Positions 3,705 to 20,408 of a stretch of 64,000 nt of DNA are shown here, in pieces. The notes under the pieces are model-generated. The model was not told where the DNA came from and made no database searches. It saw only the letters and a program-made list of their open reading frames with translations. This DNA comes from Desulfobacterales bacterium (GTDB lineage: Bacteria > Desulfobacterota > Desulfobacteria > Desulfobacterales > SpSt-501). A program made the position numbers and the translations under genes. The stretch is taken from contig JAWOHH010000087.1 of assembly GCA_046496215.1 (NCBI GenBank), positions 1,665-65,664 of the forward strand. The letters run 5' to 3'. Within the stretch, counting starts at the first letter, position 1. Each line of letters starts with the position of its first letter.

Positions 3705-5009
3705 ATGACCAAGCTCACCTACGCCACGATCGACCAGACGGTCCTGAAGACCCTCGAGCCGCCGCGCAAATCCTATTGGGTGGCGGTGGCGCTGATGTTC
3801 TGCGGCGTGCTGCTCGGAGCGGGCGCCTGGGCCTACCAGATCGCGACCGGCATCGGCGTGGGCGGCCAGAACATCCCGGTGGCCTGGGGCACCTACCTGA
3901 TCAACTTCGTCTTTTGGGTCGGAATCGCGCACTCCGGGACCCTGATCTCGGCCATTCTGCACCTGTTCCGCGCCGGCTGGCGCAACCCCATCGCACGGGC
4001 GGCCGAAACCATGACCGTGTTTGCCGTCTGCTGCGCCGGACTGTTTCCCTTCATCCACCTGGGCCGGGTCTGGCAGGTCTACTACATGCTCCCGTTTCCC
4101 AACCAGCGGCTGCTCTGGCCGAACCTTCTCTCCCCGCTCATGTTCGACGTGGTGGCCATCAGCACCTATCTCACCGTGAGCTCGCTCTTCTGGTACACGG
4201 GGCTGCTGCCGGATTTGGCCGTCGTGCGCGACCGCTCGACGGGCATCAAGCACAGGGTCTTCCGCGCGCTCTCCCTGGGCTGGACCGGGGCCCACCACCA
4301 GTGGCTCAACTACGGCCGCGGGTATCTCTTTTTTGCCGCGCTGGCCACCCCACTGGTCATCTCGGTGCACAGCGTCGTCTCCTGGGACTTTGCGCTTGGG
4401 GTGATCCCCGGCTGGCACACGACGATCTTCGCTCCCTACTTCGTGGCCGGTGCGATCCACTCGGGCCTGGCCATGGTCTTGACCCTCATGATCCCCCTGC
4501 GGCGCATCTTCCGGTACGAGGCCATCATCACCCTGCACGTGCTGGAAAACGTGGCCAAGACCATGGTGCTGACCGGCCTGATCGTCGGCCTGGCCTACGG
4601 CACGGAGTACTTCATCGCCTGGTACAGCCATAACCCGGTCGAGTGGGAGTCCTTCCGCTGGCGGGCCATGGGCGATTATGCCTACGGGCTGTACTTCATG
4701 GCCATATGCAACGTGCTGGTCCCCCTGCTCTTGCTGATCAAGGCCGTACGGACGAACATCCCCTGGCTCTTCGCGATCTCGCTCGTGGTCAACTTCGGGA
4801 TGTGGTGGGAGCGCTTCGTCATCATCATCGGCGGCGTCGCCCATGATTTCGCGCCCCATGCCTGGGGGCTGTATGCGCCTCGGTTGGTGGAGTACTGCAT
4901 CATGATCGGCAGTTTCAGCCTTTTCTTCTTCCTGTTCCTGCTCTTCTGCAAGCACCTGCCCTCGGTCTCCATGACCGAAATGAAGGAGACCCTCACCCAT
5001 GCCGACTGA
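3705..5009 (+). CDS. actC: ACIII membrane quinol-interacting subunit ActC (NrfD/PsrC family)
   Basis: About 434 aa polytopic membrane protein with NrfD-like sequence, immediately after actB. Start uncertain: ATG 3705, or TTG 3687 as in the ORF track. Confidence 0.8.
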   Translation: MTKLTYATIDQTVLKTLEPPRKSYWVAVALMFCGVLLGAGAWAYQIATGIGVGGQNIPVAWGTYLINFVFWVGIAHSGTLISAILHLFRAGWRNPIARAAETMTVFAVCCAGLFPFIHLGRVWQVYYMLPFPNQRLLWPNLLSPLMFDVVAISTYLTVSSLFWYTGLLPDLAVVRDRSTGIKHRVFRALSLGWTGAHHQWLNYGRGYLFFAALATPLVISVHSVVSWDFALGVIPGWHTTIFAPYFVAGAIHSGLAMVLTLMIPLRRIFRYEAIITLHVLENVAKTMVLTGLIVGLAYGTEYFIAWYSHNPVEWESFRWRAMGDYAYGLYFMAICNVLVPLLLLIKAVRTNIPWLFAISLVVNFGMWWERFVIIIGGVAHDFAPHAWGLYAPRLVEYCIMIGSFSLFFFLFLLFCKHLPSVSMTEMKETLTHAD

Positions 5010-13720: not shown

Positions 13721-14641
13721 CTAAAATCCGACTTGGCCGACTCCTTTCAGCCCCAAAATCTGACGGGCCTCATCGGGGGTAGCGGCCTCGATTCCCAACT
13801 CCTTGGCGATTCTCACAATCTTGGCGATTTGCTCGGCGCTGCTCTTGGCCAATACGCCCTTGTTGAGGTAGAGGCTGTCCTCAAGGCCGACGCGGGCATG
13901 TCCCCCCAGGAGGAGGGAACCCGTGCACATGGGGATCTGGTGGCGGCCGGCTGCGCAGACGGAGAACTGGAATTCACCGATCTGCTTGCGAGCGGTATCG
14001 ACGAGAAACACCAGGTTTTCGAGGGTGGCGGGGATTCCCCCCAGGATGCCCATGACGAACTGAAGGTAGACCGGCCTCCGGGCGATGCCTTTCTGGAGCA
14101 GGAATGCGAGGTTGTTGATCATGCCGACGTCGTAAATCTCGAACTCCGGTTTCGCGCCGTTGGCGTAGATGATCTCCAGGTACTGGCGCATGGTTTTGAA
14201 GGTGTTGGGGAAAATGAAATCCTCCGTCGACTCGAGATAGGACTTTTCCCAATCGTATTTCCACTCCTTCACCTGCCCCGCGATGTGGAAAAGGGCAAAG
14301 TTGAGGGACCCGGCGTTCAAGGAGGTCAGTTCGGGCTTTAGATTCGACGCAACCCGGACCCGGTTTTCCACCGGCTCTCCGAGCTTGCCCCCGGTGGTGA
14401 AACACAGGATGATGTCGCAGCGCCGCTTCACCTCCTCGGCGATCTGCCGGTAAATCGACTGGTCGGCGTTGGGCAGGCCCGTCTGAGGGTCTCTGACATG
14501 GATGTGCGCGACGGCGCCGCCGGCCTCGTAGACCCGCAAGGCCTCCTCGATCAACTGCTGGGGGGTGACCGGCAGGTAGGGTGACATGCTGGGGGTGTGA
14601 ATGGCTCCAGTCAAAGCGGCCGTAAAGATTCGTTTGTTCAT
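13721..14641 (-). CDS. BKACE family enzyme (DUF849; 3-keto-5-aminohexanoate cleavage enzyme-like)
   Basis: 'ALTGAIHTPSMSPYLPVTPQQLIEEA..AGGAVAHIHVRDP.TG.P......Y..I...V...CD.I.CFTTGG' is the canonical DUF849 N-terminal pattern. Confidence 0.85.
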   Translation of the reverse strand: MNKRIFTAALTGAIHTPSMSPYLPVTPQQLIEEALRVYEAGGAVAHIHVRDPQTGLPNADQSIYRQIAEEVKRRCDIILCFTTGGKLGEPVENRVRVASNLKPELTSLNAGSLNFALFHIAGQVKEWKYDWEKSYLESTEDFIFPNTFKTMRQYLEIIYANGAKPEFEIYDVGMINNLAFLLQKGIARRPVYLQFVMGILGGIPATLENLVFLVDTARKQIGEFQFSVCAAGRHQIPMCTGSLLLGGHARVGLEDSLYLNKGVLAKSSAEQIAKIVRIAKELGIEAATPDEARQILGLKGVGQVGF

Positions 14642-14895
14642 GATCGTCTCTCGTTATATTGGTAGAAGTTTCTATGTTTTTCGAATTCCGCGATAAAGTC
14701 CGCGACCATCTCATTTAGCGGGTAGGCTGTCTGCAGACCCCACTCGGATCTGGCACAATCGTCGTTGATTTTCAAGCCTTCTTTTACCGAAGGCCCAAGT
14801 CTTCGGAATCAGGCGAAAGCACACTGTGCGTAGTCATGGCCCATGCATTTCGGGGCTCACCGCTGTGGTAGGTGTCAAAAAAGGGGATCCTTTAA

Positions 14896-16389
14896 TCAGA
14901 CAACCCTGTCTTCTTTCACTTTTGACGCCATCTTCAGGAAGGAGGTGACGACGAGGAGAGCTGCCAGGGCCAGCAGAGAAGCCGATATCGGACGGGTGAA
15001 GAAGATGGTGAAATCCCCTCGGGACATTTCAAGCGATTGCCGCAGGGATCTTTCCATGAGCGGCCCTAAAATGACCGTCAAGATCATCGGGGCCAAGGGG
15101 ATGTCCAGTTTTTTGAAGGCATAGCCGACGAAACCGAAGGCCAGTGTCAGGCCAACGTCGAAGACGGAGTTGTGGGCGCTGTATGAGCCGATGACGCAAA
15201 AACCAAGAATCAGGGTGTACAAAATCGGTATCGGGATTCTGAGGAAGGACACCCAAACGGGAATCATGGGAAGGTTCATCACAAGAAGGATCAGGTTGCC
15301 GACATAAAAGCTCGCGATGACCGCCCAGGCGATGTCCGGGTGCTCTTTGAACAAAAACGGCCCCGGGATCAACCCGTTCATCATGAAGGCGCTCATCAAA
15401 ATCGCGATGACGGCAGAACCCGGAACCCCCAGGGTGAACAATGGGATCATGGCCGCATTACAGTAGGCGTTGTTGGCCGTCTCCGGGGCCGCCACCCCTT
15501 CGATCATGCCGGTGCCGAATTTCTCCGGGGTTTTGGATACCTTCTTCTCGACGGCATAGGAGATGAACGTGGGGACCAAAACCCCTACGCCGGGGATGAG
15601 CCCCAAAAAGAATCCAATTCCGGTGCCGCGCGTGATCGGCCAGACCGATGTCTTGAATTCCTGCCATGAGGGCCACATTTCCCGCAGCCGGGTGTGAATG
15701 ACCGATGATTTCGAGCCCTCGGCCGTCAGTAGAAGTTCGCCAATCCCGAACAGTCCCATCGCGATCGGAACGATCCCGATTCCATCCAAAAGCTCTTTTT
15801 GGCCGAAAGCGAATCGGGGCACCCCCATGACCGGGTCAATGCCAATCATCGCCAGCAGCAGACCCAGCACTGCGGAAATGAGGGCCCGGACCACGGATTT
15901 GCTGGCCAAAGCCGTTGCCAGTGCAAGCCCGATCAGCATCAGGCTGAAGAACTCCGGCGGCCCGAATTTAAGGGCAACCGCTGTCAGCGGCAACGCCAGC
16001 AGCACCAATCCCAAAGTGGCGACGTTGCCGCCGATAAAGGAGCCGATTGCGGCAATCGACAGGGCCGCACCGGCGCGTCCCTTCTTGGCCATGGCGTATC
16101 CGTCCAGGCAGGTGATGGCGGAGGCTGCCTCTCCCGGCACGTTAACCAGAACCGAGGTGATGGTTCCCCCGTACATCGATCCGTAGTAGATGGCCGAGAG
16201 CATGATGATGGAGGCAATCGGCGACATGCCGAACGTCAGCGGTAGCAGCATCGCCGTTCCTGCCGCCGGGCCCACGCCCGGGAGCACTCCGATGAGAGTC
16301 CCCACCAGGCAGCCCATGATGGCAAATGCAAGATACTGCCATTGCAGGCAGATAGCGAACCCATCCATCAACGACTGAAAAGCTTCCAT
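14896..16389 (-). CDS. tctA: Tripartite tricarboxylate transporter large permease TctA
   Basis: 497 aa polytopic protein with typical TctA sequence ('GTLIGVLPGVGPAA', 'IPGPFLF'). Operon with tctB and tctC. Confidence 0.9.
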   Translation of the reverse strand: MEAFQSLMDGFAICLQWQYLAFAIMGCLVGTLIGVLPGVGPAAGTAMLLPLTFGMSPIASIIMLSAIYYGSMYGGTITSVLVNVPGEAASAITCLDGYAMAKKGRAGAALSIAAIGSFIGGNVATLGLVLLALPLTAVALKFGPPEFFSLMLIGLALATALASKSVVRALISAVLGLLLAMIGIDPVMGVPRFAFGQKELLDGIGIVPIAMGLFGIGELLLTAEGSKSSVIHTRLREMWPSWQEFKTSVWPITRGTGIGFFLGLIPGVGVLVPTFISYAVEKKVSKTPEKFGTGMIEGVAAPETANNAYCNAAMIPLFTLGVPGSAVIAILMSAFMMNGLIPGPFLFKEHPDIAWAVIASFYVGNLILLVMNLPMIPVWVSFLRIPIPILYTLILGFCVIGSYSAHNSVFDVGLTLAFGFVGYAFKKLDIPLAPMILTVILGPLMERSLRQSLEMSRGDFTIFFTRPISASLLALAALLVVTSFLKMASKVKEDRVV

Positions 16390-16421
16390 GCGAACCCTCT
16401 TTGCTCGAACAGGCAGCCCAC

Positions 16422-16919
16422 TTAGAAAAGGATGTTGTCAAGAGGTCCGAAAACCCAATCAAACGGCCCCACCGGTAGAGGAGCGCTCAGAACAAGCGTG
16501 AAAAGGTAGAACGCGATCAACGCCCCCAGCAGGCTGATCAAGATGACTAGATACCATCTGACGCTTCCAAGCGTTAGCAGAAGAAAAGGGAAAAATACCA
16601 ACATCGTCAGCCGGTACCCCAACCGCTCAAGCATGAAGGTCGCCCAAATCCAGGCCGCGCACATGGCGCATGCCCGCATATACCCGAGGCGGGTATCAAC
16701 AAAATCAATCGGCCGTGGCGGTGCTTTTTTGAAGGTGGCCTGAATAAACATGGCGATGGCCAGAACCGCCAGCGCCAGCGACAGCCAGAAAGGGAAAAAG
16801 CCGGGGCCAGGGCCCAGCGACGTGTAGTATTTGAGCTGCAATGACTCGTAGGCGATCAGAAGGGAGAGAAGGAACAAAATCAACGCCAACAGCTGGTAGG
16901 GGCGTTTCATGGTCAGCAT
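16422..16919 (-). CDS. tctB: Tripartite tricarboxylate transporter small subunit TctB
   Basis: 4-TM small protein between tctC and tctA. ATG 16919 has AAGGTGA 5 nt upstream. The longer ORF-track start was rejected. Confidence 0.7.
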   Translation of the reverse strand: MLTMKRPYQLLALILFLLSLLIAYESLQLKYYTSLGPGPGFFPFWLSLALAVLAIAMFIQATFKKAPPRPIDFVDTRLGYMRACAMCAAWIWATFMLERLGYRLTMLVFFPFLLLTLGSVRWYLVILISLLGALIAFYLFTLVLSAPLPVGPFDWVFGPLDNILF

Positions 16920-16991
16920 GACGTCACCTTGCCGGTCCACGGCGGGCCTTTCGGGAAAAAGACCCGCCGGTTTGCATCGACCCGGATGCAC

Positions 16992-17978
16992 TCACTGCTG
17001 CTTCTTGCGGGCCTCCGTGATCAGCGGTTTGACCTGGTTTTCGAGTTGCGTCAGCCACTGCTCGCTATCCTTGGCCCCCCTGAATTTCACGTTGATTCCC
17101 AGCTGCTTCATCCGCGAGGTATACGCTTCATTGGCGACCGCCTCCTTGATCGCTTCCTCCAGGTACTGAACGATCCCGGGCGGGGTGCCCGCAGGGGCCA
17201 GTATGCCTTCGCTGTTCACCATCAAAACATTGTAACCCTGCTCGGGCATTGTTTTGACTCCAAGCAACTGCTCATTTCCTTGAGTGTCCATGATTCCGAT
17301 CACACGCGCCATGTCGCCCTTAAGCGCCGGGGCGGCTTCCGACACCAGAGCGACCAGTGCGTCGGTATGACCTCCAAGGAATGCGGTGCGACCGGGCGCT
17401 GCGCCATCAAAGTGAACGGTTGCGAATTTGGCGCCTGTCTGCTTTTCAAGCTCCAGGACCGACAGGTGGGGCGGCAGCAGGATCCCGGTCACGGCCACCT
17501 TGAATTTTTCAGGGTTTGACTTGGCGTAATCGACCACTTCCTTGATGCTCTTGTAAGGGCTGTCCTTGGCCACGATAAAGGTAAAGGGTTCGGAAGAGGT
17601 GAAGGCAACCCCGACAAAGTCTTTCCGGCTGTAGGCGGTCTGGCGGGTGGGGTCGAGGTATGTGGTGACGGTGCCGGGGAAATGGCCCAGCAGGAGGGTA
17701 TACCCATCGGGTTTGGCCGAGGTGAGTTCGGTCATCCCCACCTGAGTGCCGGCTCCGGGCTTGTTGACCACCTGGACGGGAATTCCCATTTTCTTCTCGA
17801 GCAGAGGGGCGATGATGCGCGCATCGGTGTCGGCCCCTCCCCCGGCGTTGTAGGGCACAATAATGGTCAGAACGCGTCCTTTCTGCGGATAATTGATCTT
17901 TTCAGCGGCAACCGACGGCTGACCAAAAAACAGTACAAATGCCAAGGACAAGAAAAACACTGCTGATTTTCTGAACAT
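16992..17978 (-). CDS. tctC: Tripartite tricarboxylate transporter substrate-binding protein TctC (Bug family)
   Basis: Signal peptide, then 'YPQKGRVLTIIVPYNAGGGADTDARIIAPLLEKKMG.PV.VVNKPGAG', typical of the Bug/TctC family. Confidence 0.85.
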   Translation of the reverse strand: MFRKSAVFFLSLAFVLFFGQPSVAAEKINYPQKGRVLTIIVPYNAGGGADTDARIIAPLLEKKMGIPVQVVNKPGAGTQVGMTELTSAKPDGYTLLLGHFPGTVTTYLDPTRQTAYSRKDFVGVAFTSSEPFTFIVAKDSPYKSIKEVVDYAKSNPEKFKVAVTGILLPPHLSVLELEKQTGAKFATVHFDGAAPGRTAFLGGHTDALVALVSEAAPALKGDMARVIGIMDTQGNEQLLGVKTMPEQGYNVLMVNSEGILAPAGTPPGIVQYLEEAIKEAVANEAYTSRMKQLGINVKFRGAKDSEQWLTQLENQVKPLITEARKKQQ

Positions 17979-18053
17979 GACGGCCTCCTTTGGGTTGGTA
18001 GGTTGTTGGGTTGTTGCCGTGGCAAGGCATTTCCCCGCATTGGCTGATATCCG

Positions 18054-18971
18054 CTATTGTTCCAGCGGGCATTCCCGATCCAGGCAGTCCCTGTAGAGCG
18101 CTTGGATGCGCTGGGTGGTCCGACCGCGCCGGCCGTTGCCTATCTTCCGGCCGTCCGCTTCCACTGCGGGGATGATGCCGCCAAAAGTGCCGGTCACGAA
18201 AGCCTCCTCCGCGCTGTAGACTTCCACCAGGGAAAACGATTTTTGAAAAACAGAGATGCCGGCTTCACGGCAGATGTCGATCACCACCCCCCGTGTGGTG
18301 CCGTGCAGGCAGTAGTCTCCGGTGGATGTCCAGACTTCCCCCTTTCGCACAATGAAAAAATTGGTAGAGTTGCAGGTGGCGACGAAGCCGTTGGGATCGA
18401 GCATCAGCGCCTCGTCGGCAGCGGCCTGGGTCGCTTGGATCCGGGCGAGGATACAATTGAGTTTGCTCAGCGTGTGCAGCTTGGGATCCAAAACGTCGGG
18501 GCTCCCCCTGCGCACATGAACGGTGAAAAGACGGATGCCATGCTCGGCCACCTTCAGGTTGGGCGCCTTGTACTCGCCGATGATGACCATGGTCGGACCG
18601 CCCACATTGACCCGGGGGTCTTGGTAGGGTGTTTTCTTTATCCCCCGAGTGACGATCAACCGCAAGTGGGCGGTGTCGTCCAGGCGATTCGCTTGAATGG
18701 TCTTCAGCAGCGCCCGATGAATCTCCTCCACCCCGAAAGGTAAGTCCATCGCCAGCGCTTTGGCATTTTCGAGCAACCGTTCCATGTGTCGGCTGAAAAA
18801 GGCCAGCTGGCCGTTGTGGATGCGAAAGCTCTCCCAAAAGCCATCGCCGAGCAGAAAGCCGCTGTCGAAAACCGATATCTTGGCATCGCGGCGCGGGACA
18901 AGCTCCCCGTTGATGTAAATCAGGACATTTTCGTTGCGGGGGTCTTCGATAAAATCATGCGTGGCGGACAT
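18054..18971 (-). CDS. Class IV (branched-chain/D-amino-acid type) aminotransferase
   Basis: 'NGELVPRRDAKISVFDSGFLLGDGFWESFR..NG....F..H..RL..A' and 'GITR..VI' blocks of fold-type IV PLP enzymes. GGAGA RBS. Confidence 0.8.
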   Translation of the reverse strand: MSATHDFIEDPRNENVLIYINGELVPRRDAKISVFDSGFLLGDGFWESFRIHNGQLAFFSRHMERLLENAKALAMDLPFGVEEIHRALLKTIQANRLDDTAHLRLIVTRGIKKTPYQDPRVNVGGPTMVIIGEYKAPNLKVAEHGIRLFTVHVRRGSPDVLDPKLHTLSKLNCILARIQATQAAADEALMLDPNGFVATCNSTNFFIVRKGEVWTSTGDYCLHGTTRGVVIDICREAGISVFQKSFSLVEVYSAEEAFVTGTFGGIIPAVEADGRKIGNGRRGRTTQRIQALYRDCLDRECPLEQ

Positions 18972-19193
18972 TACTATCTCCAGGTTTGAATTCGTTCATG
19001 CTTCAAGGCGCCCGGGCGAGGCGCTAAAAAAAATATATTTAAACATTATCATTATGGTCAAGTAAAACTTTACCAACTTCATTGAAAAATATTAAATATA
19101 GTATACTCATATAGTTATCTATTTTGTTGCCATGATACCGTTTAATAATGTTTGCATTTCATCACTTTTTTTAGTTTACATTTTAAAGAAAAG

Positions 19194-20408
19194 ATGAAGG
19201 GGGGATCGGATCGATTGAAAGCAAAAACCCGGGCCGCAACTACTGTCGGCTTCATCGAGACAGCGGGTGACATCAGCCGCCTACGGAAGACACTTAAAAA
19301 TCGGCTGCGTGATCTGCTCTTTTTTGAACTGGCCATCCAGACCGGCATGCACGCAAAGGATCTTTTGAACTTGAGGGTCGCCGATTTCGAGAACCTGAAA
19401 CCCGGGCAGGAGTTGAGGCTACCGCGCATACCCAAGGCTTCCAACCGGATTGTCGTCAGCCGTGCAACTTACGGGCTCTTTTCAACCTACGTTCGTGAGG
19501 AAAACCTCTCCCGCGTAGATTGCCTGTTCCGCTCGCAGAAGGGCGGCGGGCCACTGACGATCGTCAGCCTTTCTCGCCTGGTCAGTAAATGGTTCAGAAC
19601 AGCGGGCCTTTCGGTGACCGGCGGCGTGTTGGTATTGCGCCGCACATGGGAGCACCACCACCGCAGTGAAAAGCGCAGTGAGAAGTTGCCGGCTCACCCC
19701 GGAAAGGCAACCGGCCAACAACCGGAACAGAACATGTCTCGACGCGACGCTGTCTACGGGGAATTGCAGCGGGCCATCGTCTCGGGAAAAATCGTCCCCG
19801 GCCAGCGCTTTTTCATCGAAAACATCTCGCGCCGCATGGAGGTCAGTGCCATCCCGGTAAGGGAGGCATTGGCCATGCTCGAAGCGAGCGGCTTCGTCCA
19901 CTCCGACCGGAAACGGGGGTACCTCGTTAACGAGCTTTCAGAGCCCAACCTCAGGGAAATCCTCAGGCTCAGGCTTCTTTTGGAATGCACGGCCGCCAAA
20001 GAGGCGGCAAAACGTTTTACCGAGGAAGCCCTGAGCCGGCTCGAGGAATGCCACAACCGCTACGTCATCGCACGCAGGGCGAATGATTACGAGGCGCTGT
20101 TGCGGACCAATAAAGAGTTCCACCACGCCATCTACAACGCAGCGGAGATGCCTATTTTGAAATCGCACATCGACCAGGTCTGGGATCGGGTCAGCCCCTA
20201 CTACCACATCATGTTCCGCCAGGTTGAAAAACCGAACCCCATTGTCGGCATTAATTATCACCAGAAGATGATTGACGCCCTCCGGCATAGAAGTCCAAAC
20301 GAAATCCAGCGCTGGGTCAAAGCAGACCTCAGCGACTCCACCCGGTTTGTCATCGAACTCTTCTGCCTGCACAAAAAGCTGCTGGATTCTTTTCGCCTCA
20401 TCGGCTGA
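19194..20408 (+). CDS. GntR/FadR-family regulator (wHTH + FCD) preceded in frame by a degenerate tyrosine-recombinase-like domain
   Basis: C-terminal 224 aa starting 'MSRRDAVYGELQRAIVSGKIVPGQRF..IPVREAL..LE..G' is a complete FadR-type GntR. The N-terminal ~180 aa carries integrase box-I/box-II-like blocks. The start (19194 vs the internal ATG 19734) is unresolved. Confidence 0.65.
   Translation: MKGGSDRLKAKTRAATTVGFIETAGDISRLRKTLKNRLRDLLFFELAIQTGMHAKDLLNLRVADFENLKPGQELRLPRIPKASNRIVVSRATYGLFSTYVREENLSRVDCLFRSQKGGGPLTIVSLSRLVSKWFRTAGLSVTGGVLVLRRTWEHHHRSEKRSEKLPAHPGKATGQQPEQNMSRRDAVYGELQRAIVSGKIVPGQRFFIENISRRMEVSAIPVREALAMLEASGFVHSDRKRGYLVNELSEPNLREILRLRLLLECTAAKEAAKRFTEEALSRLEECHNRYVIARRANDYEALLRTNKEFHHAIYNAAEMPILKSHIDQVWDRVSPYYHIMFRQVEKPNPIVGINYHQKMIDALRHRSPNEIQRWVKADLSDSTRFVIELFCLHKKLLDSFRLIG

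Follow-up and report, generated by a model that had tools for sequence, protein, structure and literature searches.

Why does the reading frame of a complete GntR-type regulator remain open for another 180 codons upstream, and what does this extra part encode? The gene in question lies on the + strand of a 64,000-nucleotide stretch of Desulfobacterales DNA (contig JAWOHH010000087.1), which we call the window. The original prediction had offered two explanations: an integrase remnant might have been domesticated as an extra module of a repressor, or a decayed integrase might happen to remain in frame as a 5′ leader. We found that a single open reading frame (ORF) encodes a tyrosine-recombinase-like domain of approximately 140 residues (the N-domain), a disordered linker of approximately 20 residues and a complete GntR winged helix/FCD regulator. 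The fusion is genuine and old, seems to have arisen only once and evolves under purifying selection; its N-domain has kept the recombinase fold and is unable to cleave or rejoin DNA. The reading that we prefer, with a probability of roughly 0.6, is that the protein is a local, effector-released one-component GntR/FCD repressor, which carries the domesticated dead recombinase domain as an extra DNA-binding or architectural module. Residues are numbered from ATG 19194 throughout. The parts of the gene are as follows:

19194..20408, + strand: coding sequence of the fusion regulator, 404 amino acids (aa) counted from ATG 19194 (ORF list and sequence)
19197..19204, + strand: Shine-Dalgarno-like AAGGGGGG, 10 nt 5′ of TTG 19215 (inferred from the sequence and the orthologue alignment)
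19254..19667, + strand: dead homologue of the tyrosine recombinase catalytic domain, C-terminally truncated (residues 21-158; His53, Leu146, Arg149)
19668..19739, + strand: variable disordered linker (residues 159-182), standing in place of the segment with His/Trp III and the Tyr nucleophile
19746..19928, + strand: GntR winged helix-turn-helix (residues 185-245; PF00392; fold match to McbR/YncC and VanR)
19956..20330, + strand: FCD effector-binding and dimerisation domain (residues 255-379; PF07729; Foldseek match to 4p9f)

A recombinase fold without its active site

Profile searches with the first 180 aa found tyrosine recombinases. The archaeal XerA model of NCBIfam was matched with E = 7e-8, and a profile made from 34 N-domains of the family retrieved XerH (1.4e-7), a XerC-like protein (4.3e-6) and XerA (2e-5) from the PDB. 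Phage_integrase (PF00589) was matched over profile positions 7-124 of 172 with E = 2.8e-4 and 19.2-21.2 bits, which is under the cut-off of 27.1. For several members of the family PF00589 is on record, and for some the combination of PF00589, GntR and FCD is already listed by domain databases. Structure prediction gave a confident recombinase fold: the AlphaFold2 model of residues 1-165 has a predicted local distance difference test score (pLDDT) of 89.3 and a predicted template modelling score (pTM) of 0.82, and its top 50 PDB matches are exclusively tyrosine recombinases (XerA, XerH, Tn1549 Int, Cre, lambda Int). The template modelling score by query length (TMq) is 0.51-0.67 across these matches save one (0.43), with XerA at 0.64 and a root-mean-square deviation of 2.8-3.2 Å. 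About the first three-quarters of the fold are present.

The active site was read from hidden Markov model alignments to XerH, in which the register is fixed by the phmmer alignment to PDB entry 5JJV ('TGMH' corresponds to 'TGMR' and 'GGVLVLRR' to 'GAHMLRH'). They bear out both the likeness to an integrase catalytic core, with the boxes as originally assigned, and the losses predicted for it. The Arg I position is occupied by His53 (19350-19352) and the His II position by Leu146, while Arg II is kept as Arg149. The β-hairpin Lys is missing and there is no conserved Lys in its place. No counterpart of the segment with His/Trp III and the Tyr nucleophile follows the box II helix. Because Arg I, the hairpin Lys, His II and the His/Trp III and Tyr segment are all lost, the N-domain is incapable of catalysis. 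Homology places the N-terminal half with the tyrosine recombinases, but it does not have the catalytic equipment that defines them and ought not to be classified as an integrase. The linker rich in His, Lys and Ser does replace the C-terminal recombinase segment, as had been proposed, and it is predicted to be disordered (pLDDT <50 at residues 159-179 of the AlphaFold full-length model).

The N-domain is strongly basic. Across the family its median isoelectric point (pI) is 9.98 with a net charge of +8, and the pI exceeds 9 in 93%; the N-domain of the window protein has a pI of 11.06 and a net charge of +12. In this it resembles the winged helix-turn-helix domain and active small recombinases. 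A conserved S-R-K-G loop is retained across the fusions (197 aligned); we take this loop to be the segment that contacts the DNA backbone in Cre-DNA structures.

The 224 aa that begin at ATG 19734 are a full GntR winged helix-turn-helix plus FCD regulator, as was originally proposed. In Pfam, residues 185-245 match PF00392 (GntR) with 43.6-45.7 bits (cut-off 27) and residues 255-379, C-terminal to the winged helix, match PF07729 (FCD) with 83.5 bits (cut-off 24.3); scanned alone, the 224 aa give equal scores for both. The C-terminal half of the full-length model matches McbR, VanR, PmiR, TM0439 and other FCD regulators (Foldseek, template modelling score by target length (TMt) 0.8-0.89), with E. 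coli McbR/YncC (4P9F) at E = 3.6e-11 and TMt 0.88. This half is a true GntR regulator of the FCD type (FadR/VanR-like; McbR/VanR-like). It does not qualify as an McbR orthologue, since its 97.8 bits against the McbR/YncC equivalog NF008504 (NCBIfam) lie far under the cut-off of 225. With McbR/YncC, VanR/Atu1419 and PmiR the protein shares the architecture and fold of the C-terminal 220 aa and the divergent layout of a local regulator, whereas these three are without a recombinase-derived N-terminal domain.

The frame stays open upstream to ATG 19194, the first ATG, as noted originally, and even to TTG 19152; it ends with the stop codon at 20406-20408. The true start is likely TTG 19215, which would give a product of 397 aa. 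This is suggested by AAGGGGGG ahead of TTG 19215, by the N-termini of homologues, which line up with 'LKAKT' beginning at 19215 (29-sequence alignment), and by the close orthologues L024, L026 and L027, which have a TTG start preceded by a GAGGA Shine-Dalgarno sequence. A transcript from the possible promoter at 19150-19181 (see below) would provide no ribosome-binding site for ATG 19194. The whole folded N-domain is retained from either start.

The family and the origin of the fusion

A search of 5.8 billion proteins returned 306 homologues; among the matches listed, more than 100 clusters of 370-410 aa cover >90% of the query, with identities down to 34%. Altogether, approximately 200 distinct full-length fusions, 31-72% identical, share the two-domain architecture and the truncation point. 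With the N-domain alone as query, an exhaustive phmmer search gave 395 representatives at 50% identity (E ≤ 1e-3), which are mostly fusions of approximately 390 aa. In database records the members of the family go by the names 'FCD domain-containing protein' or 'GntR family transcriptional regulator' and no others, and in current annotation the genes are sometimes mis-split or have fragments named "integrase".

Six residues of the N-domain are invariant in a 29-sequence alignment: R39, L121, S125, S127, W133 and L148. The occupancy of key positions in 197 aligned fusions is as follows:

Arg I position (53): P 60, H 27, T 22, K 19, R 12
His II position (146): L 84, R 60, K 18, with S, T and P also found; H is not among the six commonest residues
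Arg II position (149): R in 163 (83%)
W133: 197/197

The recombinase part ends at one and the same place in 197/197 of these fusions, and the Tyr segment is absent in all. Selection was examined on 80 coding sequences with Nei-Gojobori ratios of nonsynonymous to synonymous substitution (dN/dS). The ratio is 0.08-0.5 for the N-domain (median approximately 0.2, taken over pairs with usable dS), 0.05-0.38 for FCD and up to approximately 1-2 for the linker, and the mean pairwise identity is 0.42 for the N-domain, 0.165 for the linker, 0.51 for the winged helix-turn-helix and 0.44 for FCD. These comparisons indicate that the N-domain is a functional, selected portion of the protein, under purifying selection as in FCD. 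With dN/dS and identity comparable to those of FCD, it does not behave as a decaying leader.

No close homologue without the N-domain was found among the homologues retrieved. Several short candidates were considered and rejected. P0118 (235 aa), which is encoded on a long contig, comes from a full-length gene with a frameshift: at L108:3513-4708 a 96-aa ORF and a 235-aa GntR protein had been called, which tblastn identifies as one fusion gene with a frameshift near 3740-3779. When gene calls are split in this way, members of the family may pass for ordinary short GntR regulators in databases. P0297 (172 aa) cannot serve as evidence for an ancestor without the N-domain, since it is an orthologue cut off at approximately residue 131 that adjoins phage-like genes. 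P0198 spans the N-domain into the start of the GntR domain and is probably a fragment; P0121, P0125 and P0131 lie inside the fusion clade described below, are without the Tyr-bearing segment and were likewise taken as fragments.

The truncated orthologue at L104:5001-5519 (GCA_041320545.1, JBGLNX010000001.1) lies beside TctCBA and has 172 aa with an unrelated tail; phage-like genes (Phage_cap_E, DUF6706) follow 3′ of it, and the gene looks as if it had been interrupted by an inserted element. P0199 (767 aa) combines N-domain, GntR and FCD with Peripla_BP_6 and represents either one more fusion or a pair of gene calls joined into one; at L016 a separate Peripla_BP_6 gene is divergent from the fusion regulator of that locus.

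The closest intact relatives of the N-domain are catalytic-domain-only recombinases of 183-197 aa from Desulfobacterota, for example UniRef I2Q6I0, 'Site-specific recombinase XerD' of Desulfovibrio sp. U5L. They were named with the help of a profile search of the N-domain against a word-indexed database, which gave 8 matches. The likeness consists of 30-33% identity, the 'LRKTW' signature and the fold, the last being shared with XerH, XerA, Cre and lambda Int as well. The small recombinases retain Arg I, the hairpin Lys, H-x-L-R-K-T-W, the second His and Tyr. Together with XerH, XerA, Cre and lambda Int they thus keep R, K, HxLR, H and Y and also the C-terminal helices, whereas the fusion domain has kept Arg II alone and ends directly after the box II helix. 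A neighbour-joining tree built on the domain places fusions and fusion fragments in one clade, with all intact small recombinases outside. The single clade and the common truncation point indicate a single ancient fusion. The named source genomes are metagenome-assembled genomes (MAGs) of Desulfobacterota (Desulfatibacillum, Desulfosarcinaceae, Desulfococcaceae, Desulfarculaceae and an Olavius symbiont); two records with other labels, L004 ('archaeon') and P0282 ('Pseudomonadota bacterium'), are both probably mis-binned.

P0247 (L105:5001-6611, 536 aa) also lies outside the fusion clade. It has Pro at the Arg I position, Phe in place of Tyr and two PAS domains, and its degenerate recombinase domain is the sole candidate DNA-binding domain, which suggests that the fold can serve as a DNA-binding output module. 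P0281 (L107:5001-5678), outside the clade as well, belongs to the cluster of P0174, a 225-aa stand-alone protein with Cys at the Arg I position. Both P0247 and P0281 are encoded beside genes for type IV secretion system coupling proteins, and P0247 also beside a ParM-like gene; these contexts resemble plasmids or integrative and conjugative elements (ICE).

Neighbouring genes and regulatory DNA

The fusion regulator is divergent from a putative target operon and separated from it by 222 bp. The operon was assigned with Pfam, NCBIfam and synteny:

13721..18971, − strand: putative target operon, divergent
18054-18971, − strand: class-IV aminotransferase
16992-17978, − strand: TctC
16422-16991, − strand: TctB
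14896-16389, − strand: TctA
13721-14641, − strand: BKACE enzyme

The BKACE gene is the last of the putative operon and is separated from TctA by 254 bp; its product reaches 401.7 bits against the NCBIfam model '3,5-dioxohexanoate:acetyl-CoA acetone transferase' (cut-off 430). A kbl-like gene, tdh and a dienelactone hydrolase gene lie 3′ of the regulator in convergent orientation.

Surveying 23 genome and 80 metagenome loci, we found that the regulator is, nearly without exception, divergent from a catabolic or transport operon (in 15 of the 18 that include upstream sequence), a layout well known from GntR repressors that act locally. TctCBA adjoins the regulator in the closest orthologues (L001, L002, L104) and the same aminotransferase does so in L003, L007 and L013. 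The partner operons of other paralogue groups variously encode a thiamine pyrophosphate-dependent enzyme, an epimerase, methyltransferases of the URO-D and MttB types, an MtmB-like methyltransferase together with a corrinoid protein, a periplasmic binding protein or a CoA ligase. Operons for corrinoid-dependent methyltransferases, including URO-D/MtaA-like and B12-binding proteins, were seen with the MttB type at L006, L008, L017 and L022 and with an MtmB-like enzyme and corrinoid protein at L018, L020 and L021. Judging from these neighbours, the family may control the catabolism of methylated and quaternary amines in Desulfobacterales. It marks regulators of catabolic operons for amino acids, organic acids and methylated amines in environmentally important sulfate reducers.

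The low-GC catabolic block noted originally is present, with a GC content of 0.52-0.58 over 14-20 kb against approximately 0.65 around it, and covers BKACE, TctABC, the aminotransferase and the regulator. Its interpretation as a former integrative element found no support. There is no tRNA in the window and no att-like direct repeats flank the block; the synteny of TctCBA and the regulator is conserved in orthologues, the fusion is old and the host is Desulfobacterales-like (the FtsH of the window is 82-86% identical to Desulfobacterales MAG proteins and up to 94% to metagenome proteins). Since the fusion is old and apparently of single origin, it is not a local relic, and an integrative element cannot explain it. 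The TctA and TctC orthologues closest to those of the window, 86% identical, come from a Desulfatibacillum MAG, and the whole cassette may have moved within the phylum.

In the 222-bp region, the following elements were predicted:

19032..19061, − strand: predicted sigma-70-type promoter of the divergent operon, TTGACC-18-TATATT (consensus scan, 10/12 matches)
19046..19061, no strand: candidate operator TTATCAT-TA-TGGTCAA, a degenerate copy of TTGACAT-N2/3-ATGTCAA that overlaps the divergent −35
19150..19181, + strand: conserved boxes GTTTGCAT (19150-19157) and GTTTACAT (19174-19181), 24 bp apart

The divergent promoter falls in the best-conserved block of 13-14 orthologous intergenic regions, and in L037, which belongs to the same group as the window, the candidate operator element on the divergent −35 reads TTAACAT-TT-ATGTCAA. 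GTTTGCAT and GTTTACAT are kept in all 14 of 14 orthologous upstream regions with a spacing of 22-24 bp, and may serve as −35 and −10 for transcription of the regulator gene, as sites of autoregulation, or in both capacities. In this orthologue group there are two promoter-proximal clusters of sites, 101-106 bp apart. In many paralogues TTGACAT-N3-ATGTCAA is found at the regulator's own promoter, perfectly in L007 and L045 and with at most 2 mismatches in about ten others; it is plausibly an operator for the winged-helix dimer, which would compete with the sigma factor at the −35.

The hexamer TTGACA occurs at 4.0/kb upstream of the regulators (59 non-redundant regions) and at 0.51/kb elsewhere in the loci. 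In the upstream regions it is preceded by C in 54% (25% elsewhere) and followed by T in 48% (30% elsewhere). CTTGACA, the top k-mer by enrichment, was rejected as a regulator-specific site because it resolves into the −35 elements of the two back-to-back promoters and is therefore not by itself claimed for the regulator; the flank bias and the palindromic pairs exceed what a promoter requires. Three direct RTTWDCAT boxes were considered as sites of the N-domain. They are inseparable from the −35/−10 reading, because the 22-24 bp from the first to the second box equal a promoter spacer of 16-18 bp, and they are kept as candidates only. The palindrome TGGTCAAGTAAAACTTTACCA (19055-19075) was dropped as an operator, orthologues conserving only GGTCAAG. 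Promoter elements and candidate operators overlap and are not separable by sequence alone. Upstream of the regulators at L018, L020, L021 and L081-L090 the direct repeat is not the RTTWDCAT box seen in the window's group: TATCGWAA is present there three times, with two copies close to the divergent promoter and the third within the spacer of the promoter next to the regulator. A scan of the intergenic region against Rfam gave no match.

Possible roles of the dead domain

The repressor that we favour would act in a manner known from the FadR/VanR-type GntR family, adapted to this gene context. The FCD domains would dimerise the protein, and the winged helices would bind palindromes of the TTGACAT-N2/3-ATGTCAA type, which would overlap the −35s of the two back-to-back promoters in the 222-bp region. 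The bound protein would repress its own gene as well as the divergent aminotransferase-TctCBA(-BKACE) operon, until a small carboxylate or amino-acid-derived effector binds FCD and causes release. The two dead recombinase modules, on flexible linkers of approximately 20 residues, would serve as extra non-covalent DNA clamps or architectural contacts; they might lengthen the footprint or bridge the two promoters, which are approximately 100 bp apart. The N-domain is assigned this role because of its basic charge, the retained Arg II and S-R-K-G loop and the relative P0247.

Several points weigh against this reading. The full-length model has a pTM of only 0.55 and the position of the N-domain relative to the remaining protein is undefined in it. 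The charge and modelled fold of the N-domain are at most suggestive of DNA binding, and P0247 and P0281, with their plasmid- or ICE-like setting, may have functions that are not related to transcription. On the DNA side, the window palindrome TTATCAT-TA-TGGTCAA has 4 mismatches to the family consensus, ordinary promoter elements (−35, −10 and UP) would suffice to account for the conserved boxes, and effector and regulon are inferred solely from the gene neighbourhood.

The main rival is that the dead domain does not bind DNA and works as a protein-protein module, which would mediate contacts between dimers for cooperative assembly or looping, or recruit a partner. Tyrosine recombinases, which form multimers on DNA, and NanR, whose N-terminal extension serves cooperative assembly (see below), would be parallels. 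The two promoter-proximal site clusters at a distance of 101-106 bp are consistent with such a role, the three direct TATCGWAA repeats of the group-2 paralogues would suit cooperative binding of several dimers, and the flexible linker would permit reach between dimers. In tyrosine recombinases such as Cre and lambda Int, the C-terminal helices mediate the cyclic contacts between protomers. Exactly these helices fall in the deleted region, and the strong basicity with the retained Arg II and SRKG loop fits contact with nucleic acid better. We regard a protein-protein role as clearly the less probable of the two.

It is very improbable that the 180 codons upstream represent an integrase remnant in decay or an untranslated leader and that the 224 aa from ATG 19734 are the working protein. 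The C-terminal part is indeed complete by itself and the N-domain scores under the Pfam gathering threshold, but the N-domain is confidently folded, stays in frame in approximately 200 homologues down to 31% identity and has a dN/dS of approximately 0.2. The position of the internal Met is not conserved in the 29-sequence alignment, where homologues show I, T, S or P. The sequence has no Shine-Dalgarno element ahead of ATG 19734, a consensus promoter scan found no internal + strand promoter within the gene, and P0118, the one candidate for a short form, is a full-length gene that carries a frameshift. The leader explanation is therefore refuted, and the domestication that had been proposed beside it is supported by the conserved architecture, the purifying selection and the confident recombinase fold. 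Flp and some other recombinases assemble their active sites in trans, and with Arg II retained in 83% of members the N-domain might be thought to belong still to an active recombinase or nicking enzyme that obtains catalytic residues from a partner; this is the least probable reading of all, as Arg I, Lys and His II are lost and replaced by no single conserved residue, the Tyr segment is nowhere in the protein, the 100+ loci examined have no conserved partner recombinase gene and no invertible segment flanked by inverted repeats was seen. Both the trans-completed enzyme and the decayed leader are effectively excluded.

Returning to the repressor with a domesticated recombinase domain, a more specific version of it can be put forward tentatively. 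The truncated domain might be a genuine second DNA-reading module, possibly specific for sequence or shape, that adds two DNA contacts to a repressor dimer and thereby sets the choice of sites among paralogues (RTTWDCAT, TATCGWAA) or loops the promoters, and that would also act as the output domain of PAS sensors such as P0247. Bacteria would then have domesticated the catalytic domain of a mobile-element recombinase for non-covalent DNA binding. If this were true, it would be the first prokaryotic counterpart of the eukaryotic DUF3504, and an experimentally tractable one.

The domestication of enzymes from mobile elements into regulators is well documented in eukaryotes, DUF3504 being an example. 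DUF3504 is a conserved tyrosine-recombinase domain derived from Crypton transposons that has lost most catalytic residues and is found in KCTD1, KIAA1958, ZMYM2-4, QRICH1 and WOC; the function of this dead domain is likewise unknown (Kojima and Jurka, 2011, PMC3212892). As in the fusion, a dead recombinase domain is part of transcription regulators that have another DNA-binding domain (PMC3212892), whereas its origin is eukaryotic and independent and it is not truncated as here. A Pfam scan of the N-terminal 180 aa at E ≤ 1 gave Phage_integrase only and not DUF3504. The resemblance is of kind and not of family, and DUF3504 is the closest conceptual precedent.

The integrase-GntR architecture is apparently undescribed. 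In agreement with the original statement that none was known, literature searches within the searchable library found no bacterial recombinase-GntR fusion or comparable regulator with a dead recombinase, only papers on eukaryotic DUF3504 and ALOG. In a review of prokaryotic mobile-element exaptation, the six places that mention 'tyrosine recombinase', 'integrase' or 'inactivated' hold no such case (PMC8987985), and the words 'GntR' and 'inactive' do not occur in a classification paper on tyrosine recombinases (PMC8138268). The fusion should be moderately surprising to a specialist. In this large bacterial family a dead recombinase domain is joined to a repressor of a well-understood type, for which the DNA target (222 bp) and the target genes are obvious, which makes it a tractable system for asking what role a recombinase fold plays when it is no longer able to recombine.

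Another FCD-type GntR regulator with an N-terminal extension is E. coli NanR, which has approximately 30 additional residues and binds repeated sites cooperatively. NanR would resemble the fusion in having an extra N-terminal part that alters the assembly of dimers on repeated operators. It would differ in that this part is a short peptide, whereas the protein described here carries a folded 140-residue domain derived from a recombinase.

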